Positions 18,760 through 18,832 of a stretch of DNA of 64,000 bases are shown here, piece after piece. The stretch lies in the NCBI RefSeq assembly GCF_003334405.1, contig NZ_QOWM01000004.1. One strand, written 5' to 3'. The notes beneath the pieces are model-generated. The model did not search any database and had not been told where the DNA came from. It saw only the letters and a program-made list of their open reading frames with translations. The translations under genes were made by a program, and so were the position numbers. Each line of letters begins with the position of its first letter. Position 1 is the stretch's first letter. The stretch is from Escherichia coli (GTDB lineage: Bacteria > Pseudomonadota > Gammaproteobacteria > Enterobacterales > Enterobacteriaceae).

Positions 18760-18778
18760 AATAGCCCCCTGTTGAATA

Positions 18779-18798
18779 TACTGGTTATTTATACAGGT
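18779..18798 (-). promoter_or_regulatory. LexA (SOS) box in dinI promoter
   Basis: taCTGgttatttataCAGgt matches CTG-N10-CAG with an AT-rich core, about 20 bp upstream of the dinI start. Confidence 0.8.
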
Positions 18799-18832
18799 AA
18801 AATAACCTAATGACAACAGGAAGCTACGATTT

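Follow-up and report, generated by a model that had tools for sequence, protein, structure and literature searches.

A conserved inverted repeat between the promoter flank and the Shine-Dalgarno sequence of the LexA-controlled dinI gene in the pyrC-dinI spacer of Escherichia coli

The window examined here, a 64-kb (64,000-nucleotide) stretch of E. coli DNA, carries the dinI gene immediately downstream of pyrC, both on the minus strand. The dinI open reading frame (18514-18759, with its ATG at 18759-18757) encodes an 81-residue modulator of RecA filaments, and its product matches the Pfam DinI family (PF06183) over model positions 1-63 of 63 with E = 2.6e-29. The dihydroorotase gene pyrC occupies 18833-19879 and ends in a TAA stop codon at 18835-18833. 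These genes correspond to b1061 (dinI) and b1062 (pyrC) in the RefSeq annotation of MG1655, and the open reading frame list places two further minus-strand genes nearby, bssS (17972-18229) and solA (16739-17857). The spacer between pyrC and dinI (18760-18832) measures 73 bp, has a G+C content of 34%, and holds the whole dinI promoter, operator, and leader. From 18440 to 18900 the sequence is the same as that of K-12 MG1655 except for one extra T in the T-run of the dinI terminator, and within the spacer the two do not differ at all. Identity to MG1655 and the RefSeq annotation confirm the gene assignments made in a preliminary description of this DNA, whose figure of 73 bp from the pyrC stop to the dinI start is exact.

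The LexA (SOS) box is a 20-bp element at 18779-18798 that reads ACCTGTATAAATAACCAGTA on the minus strand and TACTGGTTATTTATACAGGT on the plus strand, and it spans approximately −17 to +3 of the dinI promoter. Its 16-bp core, CTGGTTATTTATACAG at 18781-18796, has the form CTG-N10-CAG with an A/T-rich center. This loose pattern is common and uninformative by itself, with 25 matches in the 64-kb window against 13.2 expected. Only the dinI site among these 25 has an A/T-rich spacer; the others are G+C-rich and can probably be put down to the frequent codons CTG and CAG. Compared with the perfect LexA palindrome TACTGTATATATATACAGTA, the dinI 20-mer agrees at 15 of 20 positions, and because of its five mismatches a search of the window for the palindrome with up to three mismatches allowed found no site. 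We therefore scored the box with a symmetrized weight matrix built from 17 published E. coli LexA boxes (Table 4, PMC3009722), with dinI itself excluded. The dinI box scores 21.1 bits under this 17-box matrix, a mid-range value among the training sites (13.8-28.3 bits), and tops all ~64,000 positions of the window, where the runner-up scores 11.0 bits (window mean −27.7, sd 9.3). It is the sole LexA-like site in the 64-kb window, and the motif scan thereby bears out the preliminary description, which had placed a LexA box between dinI and pyrC. The word “canonical” used there needs one qualification, namely that the site carries five mismatches to the palindrome, a number that is normal for real LexA boxes.

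We assigned the core promoter elements from the consensus, from their conservation, and from the transcription start of the Klebsiella orthologue, which overlaps the LexA box. The −35 element, TTGTCA at 18811-18816, begins 16 nt past the pyrC stop codon and matches TTGACA at five of six positions. The −10 element, TATAAA at 18788-18793, lies inside the LexA box and likewise matches its consensus, TATAAT, at five of six. A spacing of 17 nt separates the two, and direct reading gives 10 consensus matches out of 12. A consensus sigma-70 scan did not list the dinI promoter because it demands a T at the sixth position of the −10 element, where an A stands here. Transcription presumably starts at 18781-18782, 6-7 nt past the −10 element, which would give a leader of ~22 nt, and the Shine-Dalgarno sequence AGGGGG (18765-18770) ends 5 nt before the ATG. 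The earlier claim of a dinI promoter within the spacer is supported, with the conserved TTGTCA-17 nt-TATAAA arrangement as its probable core. An alternative −10 element, TATATT at 18775-18780, was rejected, as the sequence at its −35 position is ATTTTA and a start that far downstream would lose the Shine-Dalgarno sequence. Two plus-strand promoter candidates in the spacer (18753-18782 and 18810-18839) were also set aside, their count being at chance level (3 versus 3.5 expected).

Downstream of the coding region lies the intrinsic terminator of dinI (18472-18494), in which the hairpin GCCGGG-TCGC-CCCGGC (18494-18479) combines six G-C pairs with a loop of four and is followed by a T-run, the tail reading TTTTTTATTT. 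Past pyrC, the minus strand has no earlier terminator-like site. The promoter and terminator together predict a dinI mRNA of ~310 nt, near the ~350 nt of the Klebsiella primary transcript.

Almost certainly, the site is the promoter at which LexA represses the E. coli SOS gene dinI, and no result spoke against this reading. The present analysis established how its sequence is built, how far it stands out statistically, and how well it is conserved; LexA binding and the induction of dinI by damage are taken from the literature. LexA binding at the E. coli dinI site, for which gel-shift data have been reported, was reportedly demonstrated by Lewis et al. (1994) and by Fernandez de Henestrosa et al. 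(2000), and the same studies are said to have placed the dinI promoter/operator in the SOS regulon. Later work also treats dinI as a member of that regulon (PMC3009722, PMC11228462, PMC6590174). In E. coli, dinI is induced 49-fold by AZT with a 39-fold dependence on LexA cleavage, and the heterology index of its box, 4.8, predicts tight LexA binding (PMC11228462). The gene is also among the most UV-induced, and MEME recovered as the dinI motif a 25-mer, TTACCTGTATAAATAACCAGTATAT, identical to the one present here (PMC3009722). With this 25-mer and the flanking genes identical, the window contains the very locus described in those studies. The published induction by AZT and UV speaks against the case, raised in the preliminary description, in which dinI would fail to respond to DNA damage, and the literature likewise goes against its other refuting case, a failure of LexA to bind.

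Orthologues behave in the same manner. The Salmonella dinI gene is induced 22.8-fold and has its LexA box 19 nt from the ATG (PMC8072944). In Klebsiella, where the dinI transcription start has been mapped, it is overlapped by the LexA box, LexA occupies the site in ChIP experiments and its occupancy falls after mitomycin C, and ~50 bp upstream of the start suffices for induction of a transcript of ~350 nt (PMC10907235). Klebsiella pneumoniae dinI/DinR thus resembles the E. coli gene, with a LexA box at the start and a transcript that ends at an intrinsic terminator; the Klebsiella 3′ UTR contains an extra stretch, lacking in E. coli, that yields the Hfq-dependent sRNA DinR (PMC10907235). A mapped E. 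coli dinI start was not found in the literature searched, and we infer both its exact position and repression by steric exclusion. The LexA box encloses the −10 element together with the presumed start (the E. coli start being derived from the −10 position), a placement that fits promoter occlusion. In the undamaged cell, a LexA dimer on the operator would exclude RNA polymerase from the dinI promoter. After DNA damage, the formation of RecA filaments triggers LexA self-cleavage; the promoter can then fire, and its predicted product is a monocistronic mRNA of ~310 nt terminated by the hairpin at 18479-18494. The DinI protein made in this way modulates RecA filaments in a dose-dependent fashion. 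DinI present at stoichiometric levels stabilizes the filaments, whereas high levels of it inhibit both the UmuD cleavage mediated by RecA and RecA recombinase activity (reviewed in PMC6590174). That dinI has a LexA box, how strong this box is, and that the gene is inducible are already known and form part of textbook SOS biology.

The dinI promoter shares its basic design with other SOS promoters. The LexA boxes of umuDC and sulA overlap the −10 element and the transcription start, and in these genes, as in dinI, a single 20-bp operator of the CTGT-N8-ACAG type covers the core promoter. Unlike them, dinI lies with its promoter only 16 nt past the stop codon of an unrelated biosynthetic gene on the same strand, with no terminator between. 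With −35, −10, operator, start, and ribosome site all contained in 73 bp, the spacer offers a clean example of a minimal regulated promoter.

This arrangement is highly conserved. Of 5426 complete E. coli genomes, 5421 contain the 93-base segment around the spacer, and in 3192 of these it is at least 99% identical. A homologous-protein search returned only close relatives from the Enterobacteriaceae, at least 74% identical, and a scan of one genome per species yielded 80 loci, all from this one family. In every one of the 80 species pyrC is immediately upstream of dinI and a LexA box is present. Downstream, bssS follows dinI in 78 species, and the other two loci stop at a contig edge. In 76 of the 80, the spacer measures 65-81 nt and 18-21 nt separate the end of the best LexA site (19.6-29.6 bits) from the ATG. 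Outside this range fall two species of Trabulsiella, in which the leader carries an insertion of ~43 nt, and two of Buttiauxella, where an insertion of ~126 nt consists of a dispersed repeat with a median of seven copies per E. coli genome. Alignment of the 76 sequences shows an invariant −35 TTG, with TTGTCA and TTGTAA predominating, an invariant −10 element within CTGTATAAA, and a nearly invariant GGGGG in the Shine-Dalgarno sequence. The conserved blocks are the −35 TTG, CTGTATAAATA..CAGTA, ACAGGGGGC, and the ATG; the 17-nt promoter spacer and the first 10-15 nt past the pyrC stop are variable.

Prophages carry the same module. We collected prophage dinI homologues from 162 phage records and 80 viral contigs, and 54 of 59 distinct upstream sequences contain a −35 element of the TTGA(A/T)C type, a LexA box, and a distance of 19 nt to the ATG. 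These copies come from Gifsy-1, -2, and -3, lambdoid, Stx, and Klebsiella prophages and encode proteins of 76-83 residues that share only 35-55% identity; their upstream neighbors differ, and some have two LexA boxes (L084, L086). LexA regulation has been reported for the Gifsy copies (PMC8072944). Since the same layout is found in prophages, the compactness of the promoter is a property of the dinI cassette and not the result of squeezing beside pyrC. The cassette is a conserved unit common to chromosomal and prophage dinI genes, with the distance from box to ATG fixed at 19 nt.

The proximity of pyrC raises the matter of read-through. A search of the minus strand from 18833 to 18760 for an intrinsic terminator, defined as a G+C-rich hairpin followed by a T-run, found none. 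The nearest minus-strand terminator-like sites are at 19022-18995, within pyrC and with only three G-C pairs, and at 18494-18479, after dinI. A small hairpin at the pyrC stop codon (AACGG...CCGUU) is followed by an A-rich rather than a U-rich stretch. With pyrC lacking an intrinsic terminator, its transcripts would therefore either be stopped by Rho or cross the dinI promoter, and Rho-dependent termination between the two genes is possible. That pyrC transcription runs straight into the promoter, as the preliminary description had it, is plausible on these grounds, there being no terminator between; confirmation at the transcript level was not found. In the accessible part of the SMRT-Cappable-seq supplements, neither pyrC nor dinI is mentioned. 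The portion of the Term-seq/bicyclomycin supplement that we could consult contains nothing at MG1655 positions 1,121,2xx-1,121,5xx, and hence nothing in the spacer; the only site given there is internal to pyrC, at 1,122,569, near the 5′ end of the gene. Klebsiella Northern blots are described as showing only transcripts of ~350 nt or shorter (PMC10907235), and the phrase “pyrC-dinI” did not occur in the literature searched.

An RNA that did cross the promoter would contain an inverted repeat, which is possibly the only new detail at the dinI locus. Read on the minus strand, the 5′ arm, GUAGCUUCCUGUUG (18814-18827), overlaps the first half of the −35 element, and the 3′ arm, CAACAGGGGGCUAU (18761-18774), covers the Shine-Dalgarno sequence and extends to 2 nt before the AUG. 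As DNA, the arms are 13 nt long and 85% complementary; as minus-strand RNA, they can form 14 base pairs, three of which are G-U. Its position ahead of the presumed dinI start means that the 5′ arm is present only in RNA entering from pyrC. Between the arms, an inner 8-bp hairpin with fully (100%) complementary strands, GGUUAUUU and AAAUAACC (18783-18807), makes use of the promoter-distal half of the LexA box; in predicted folds of the read-through RNA it closes off the loop that the larger stem leaves. The inner hairpin is not clearly conserved in the alignment with other species.

Structure prediction separates the two kinds of transcript. RNA spanning 18850-18740 is predicted to fold into the 14-bp stem with the inner hairpin at −29.7 kcal/mol (z = −3.57, equaled by 0 of 200 shuffles), and the segment 18760-18828 folds at −26.7 kcal/mol. 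For RNA that begins at the dinI start, no significant fold is predicted (z = +1.63). The ribosome site (−14 to +3) has a mean unpaired probability of 0.53 in this SOS transcript but of 0.16 in the read-through RNA, versus 0.36 when the spacer is dinucleotide-shuffled, with only two of 150 shuffles as low as the read-through value. Averaged over the 80 species, the accessibilities are 0.53 for the SOS transcript, 0.26 for the read-through RNA, and 0.37 for shuffled sequences. Paired as an intermolecular duplex, the promoter region and the ribosome site reach −21.7 kcal/mol in E. coli, an energy attained by none of 2000 shuffles; across the 80 species the median is −20.5 kcal/mol, compared with about −12 for shuffles. 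In 52 of these species, which are related and do not amount to 80 independent tests, three or fewer of 300 shuffles attain the observed duplex energy.

The complementarity includes a C-run, GCCCCC, directly 5′ of the −35 element. This run belongs to no promoter consensus element, and its columns are 70-84% identical across species, versus 26-54% for the flanking columns. Together with the TGTTG that follows, it forms the reverse complement of the Shine-Dalgarno region CAACAGGGGGC. The arm beside the −35 element reads GCCCCCTGTTG in most Enterobacteriaceae and GUAGCUUCCUGUUG in E. coli. Nine core pairs of the stem are almost invariant; the outer ones are formed by roughly half of the sequences. 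Double changes, found in three of the 14 pairs, number 30 cells against 19.6 in shuffled alignments, a value reached in 1 of 500 by a control that ignores relatedness. Where the C-run is substituted, a G-U wobble results in 34 cells and a mismatch in 22. RNAalifold, applied to 76 sequences, did not return the stem as a consensus structure. The C-run has been lost from the Citrobacter freundii group through a 10-nt deletion, and Trabulsiella has kept both arms though its G-run no longer precedes the ATG. An Rfam search of 18300-19100 with E values up to 10 gave matches at chance level only, among them a miRNA-precursor model over the hairpin with E = 1. We read the inverted repeat as a genuine, non-random feature of the sequence that has been conserved.

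What the repeat might do can be read in three ways. The chances are about even that it does nothing, the G-rich Shine-Dalgarno sequence and the C-rich −35 flank simply having been inherited together in a small, slowly evolving spacer, and this is the single most likely alternative. All 80 sequences come from one family and share ancestry, so that the per-species statistics are not independent, and the invariance of the core pairs, the negative RNAalifold result, and the degradation or deletion of the 5′ arm in some lineages with no obvious loss of the gene are in keeping with such co-inheritance. It accounts less well for the C-run, which has held while other non-consensus columns of the spacer diverged to 26-54%, or for an E. 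coli complementarity that beats all 2000 shuffles; the excess of wobbles (34) over mismatches (22) among C-run substitutions also speaks for pairing, although a transition bias could give a similar ratio. If the repeat does have a function, the most economical hypothesis is fold-back occlusion, a tentative proposal to which we give appreciably less credence. The predicted fold would bury the dinI Shine-Dalgarno sequence in RNA derived from pyrC, such that DinI would be made only from the LexA-controlled start. Transcripts from pyrC, carrying both arms, would hide the ribosome site within the fold and, with their dinI segment untranslated, might be open to Rho termination, and transcripts from the LexA-controlled start, without the 5′ arm, would leave it far more accessible. 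DinI dosage would then be set by the SOS signal only and not by the pyrimidine-regulated transcription of pyrC.

Several observations argue for occlusion: the 14-bp stem over the Shine-Dalgarno sequence in read-through RNA, with no shuffle of 200 matching its energy; the absence of a significant fold from the dinI-start transcript, whose ribosome site is about half unpaired; the drop of that site to 0.16 in read-through RNA, below the shuffled spacers, with the same ordering of mean accessibilities over 80 species; the duplex energies, in E. coli and in the 52 species; and a conserved C-run that the promoter consensus does not call for. The lack of intrinsic-terminator protection from pyrC and the dose-dependent action of DinI also count in its favor, and IS200 provides a precedent in which a stem-loop occludes a ribosome binding site (PMC3196728). 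Against it stand the failure of RNAalifold to return the stem, core pairs that hardly vary and therefore carry little information, outer pairs formed in only about half of the sequences, and an excess of double changes that is modest (30 versus 19.6 cells, 1 in 500) and takes no account of relatedness. The 10-nt deletion of the C-run in the Citrobacter freundii group, the retention of the arms in Trabulsiella with the G-run away from the ATG, and the presence of an anti-Shine-Dalgarno sequence beside the −35 element in only some prophage dinI promoters weigh in the same direction, as do the SMRT-Cappable-seq and Term-seq supplements, which in their accessible parts list no read-through transcripts, and the Klebsiella Northern blots with their upper limit of ~350 nt. 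The Trabulsiella arms would be easier to understand if the hairpin served pyrC, either as a 3′ stem-loop against 3′ exonucleases or as a weak terminator or pause site. IS200 offers a parallel here too, since its stem-loop terminates impinging transcripts (PMC3196728), and a stable structure (−26.7 kcal/mol) does lie just past the stop codon of a gene that otherwise lacks a 3′ hairpin with a T-run. Yet no T-run follows the stem (CUAUUAUG), the 39-nt loop fails the criteria for a terminator, no 3′ end falls in the interval in the part of the Term-seq supplement consulted, and transcription would have to pass the LexA-occupied operator to produce a 3′ end at the stem base. We consider a role for the hairpin in pyrC improbable, and less likely than occlusion of the dinI ribosome site.

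Occlusion of this kind, were it to operate at dinI, would explain how a dose-sensitive SOS modulator tolerates a place downstream of an unterminated biosynthetic gene, and it would mean that a mechanism familiar from insertion sequences also acts at ordinary pairs of chromosomal genes. The transposase genes of IS10 and IS50 are protected from impinging transcription by fold-back occlusion. In IS200, likewise, a stem-loop occludes the ribosome binding site and protects the element from impinging transcription (PMC3196728). The logic predicted for dinI is similar to that of all three elements, with a 5′ arm upstream of the gene's own start and a 3′ arm over the ribosome site. It differs in that dinI is a chromosomal SOS gene rather than a transposase gene, that its 5′ arm overlaps the −35 element, and that the function of its arms is putative. 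Among the prophage dinI genes, some lineages have a −35 flank complementary to their Shine-Dalgarno sequence and others do not. In one lineage that has it, CCCUCAAA beside the −35 element pairs with UUUGAGGG, and in Gifsy-type dinI genes CCUCU in the same position pairs with AGAGG.

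The dinI promoter is bracketed by a conserved inverted repeat, the two arms of which lie at 18761-18774 and 18814-18827, with an inner hairpin formed by 18783-18790 and 18800-18807. The Shine-Dalgarno region of dinI is complementary to the arm that flanks the -35 element, at -21.7 kcal/mol, a value reached by none of 2000 shuffled sequences. Pairing of the inverted repeat could form only in RNA that reads through from pyrC.

The minus-strand segment immediately upstream of pyrC (19880-19929) matches the Rfam family PyrC_leader (RF02372) with 68.7 bits and is the known leader element of pyrC. 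In a Term-seq supplement, a site classed as internal to pyrC maps near this leader, at MG1655 position 1,122,569. AZT has been reported to induce pyrC together with the entire de novo pyrimidine pathway in a manner that depends on LexA cleavage (PMC11228462), despite the lack of a LexA box at pyrC and the rest of the pathway (PMC11228462). Read-through from the dinI promoter is ruled out as the cause of this induction because pyrC lies upstream of dinI.

At the other end of dinI, the terminator hairpin (18472-18505) has A/T-runs on either side, reading A8-stem-A9 on the plus strand, and the terminator therefore looks bidirectional. Its T-run comprises nine residues in the window versus eight in MG1655.

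Prophage copies of dinI (L082-L086 and L090-L169) share the geometry of the chromosomal gene, with 19 nt between the end of the LexA box and the ATG. Two of these loci, L084 and L086, each carry two LexA boxes. Many prophage dinI loci also contain a conserved motif, AAAAAGTGC, which lies ~50 nt ahead of the start.

Longer spacers occur between pyrC and dinI in two other genera. The spacer measures 199-201 nt in Buttiauxella gaviniae and B. brennerae (L062 and L080), where an inserted copy of a dispersed intergenic repeat, ~126 nt long, separates the LexA box from the dinI Shine-Dalgarno sequence and lengthens the leader. This repeat resembles ERIC/IRU, and E. coli genomes carry a median of 7 copies of it. 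The two Trabulsiella loci (L033 and L034) have spacers of 116-118 nt, in which an insertion of ~43 nt separates the conserved G-run from the dinI ATG. The insertion is stop-free and in frame from a GTG right behind the G-run, making an N-terminal extension or a new ribosome site possible.

Within E. coli, a natural clean deletion of dinI is present in an ST2747 strain (NZ_CP007394.1; L088, 3945-4038), where the match to the window ends at 18796, within the LexA box, and the gap from bssS to pyrC is only 92 nt. Most of the dinI region is absent from about 5-10 of 5426 complete E. coli genomes. In strain JX21CE35 (L089, 566-1263), an IS1B element has inserted into the bssS-dinI intergenic region, beyond the terminator of dinI.

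Across the whole window there are 25 matches to the loose LexA core CTG-N10-CAG, where 13.2 would be expected, and none of 100 shuffles reaches 25. Since the matches are G+C-rich throughout the window, with the dinI site as the sole exception, this excess probably reflects codon usage (CTG, CAG) and not LexA sites. Other Rfam matches scoring above the gathering threshold are the rne 5' UTR element (41664-42000, minus strand), the SraB sRNA (43861-44029, plus strand), ES056 (523-614, minus strand), and ES036 (CssrF; 10709-10751, minus strand).
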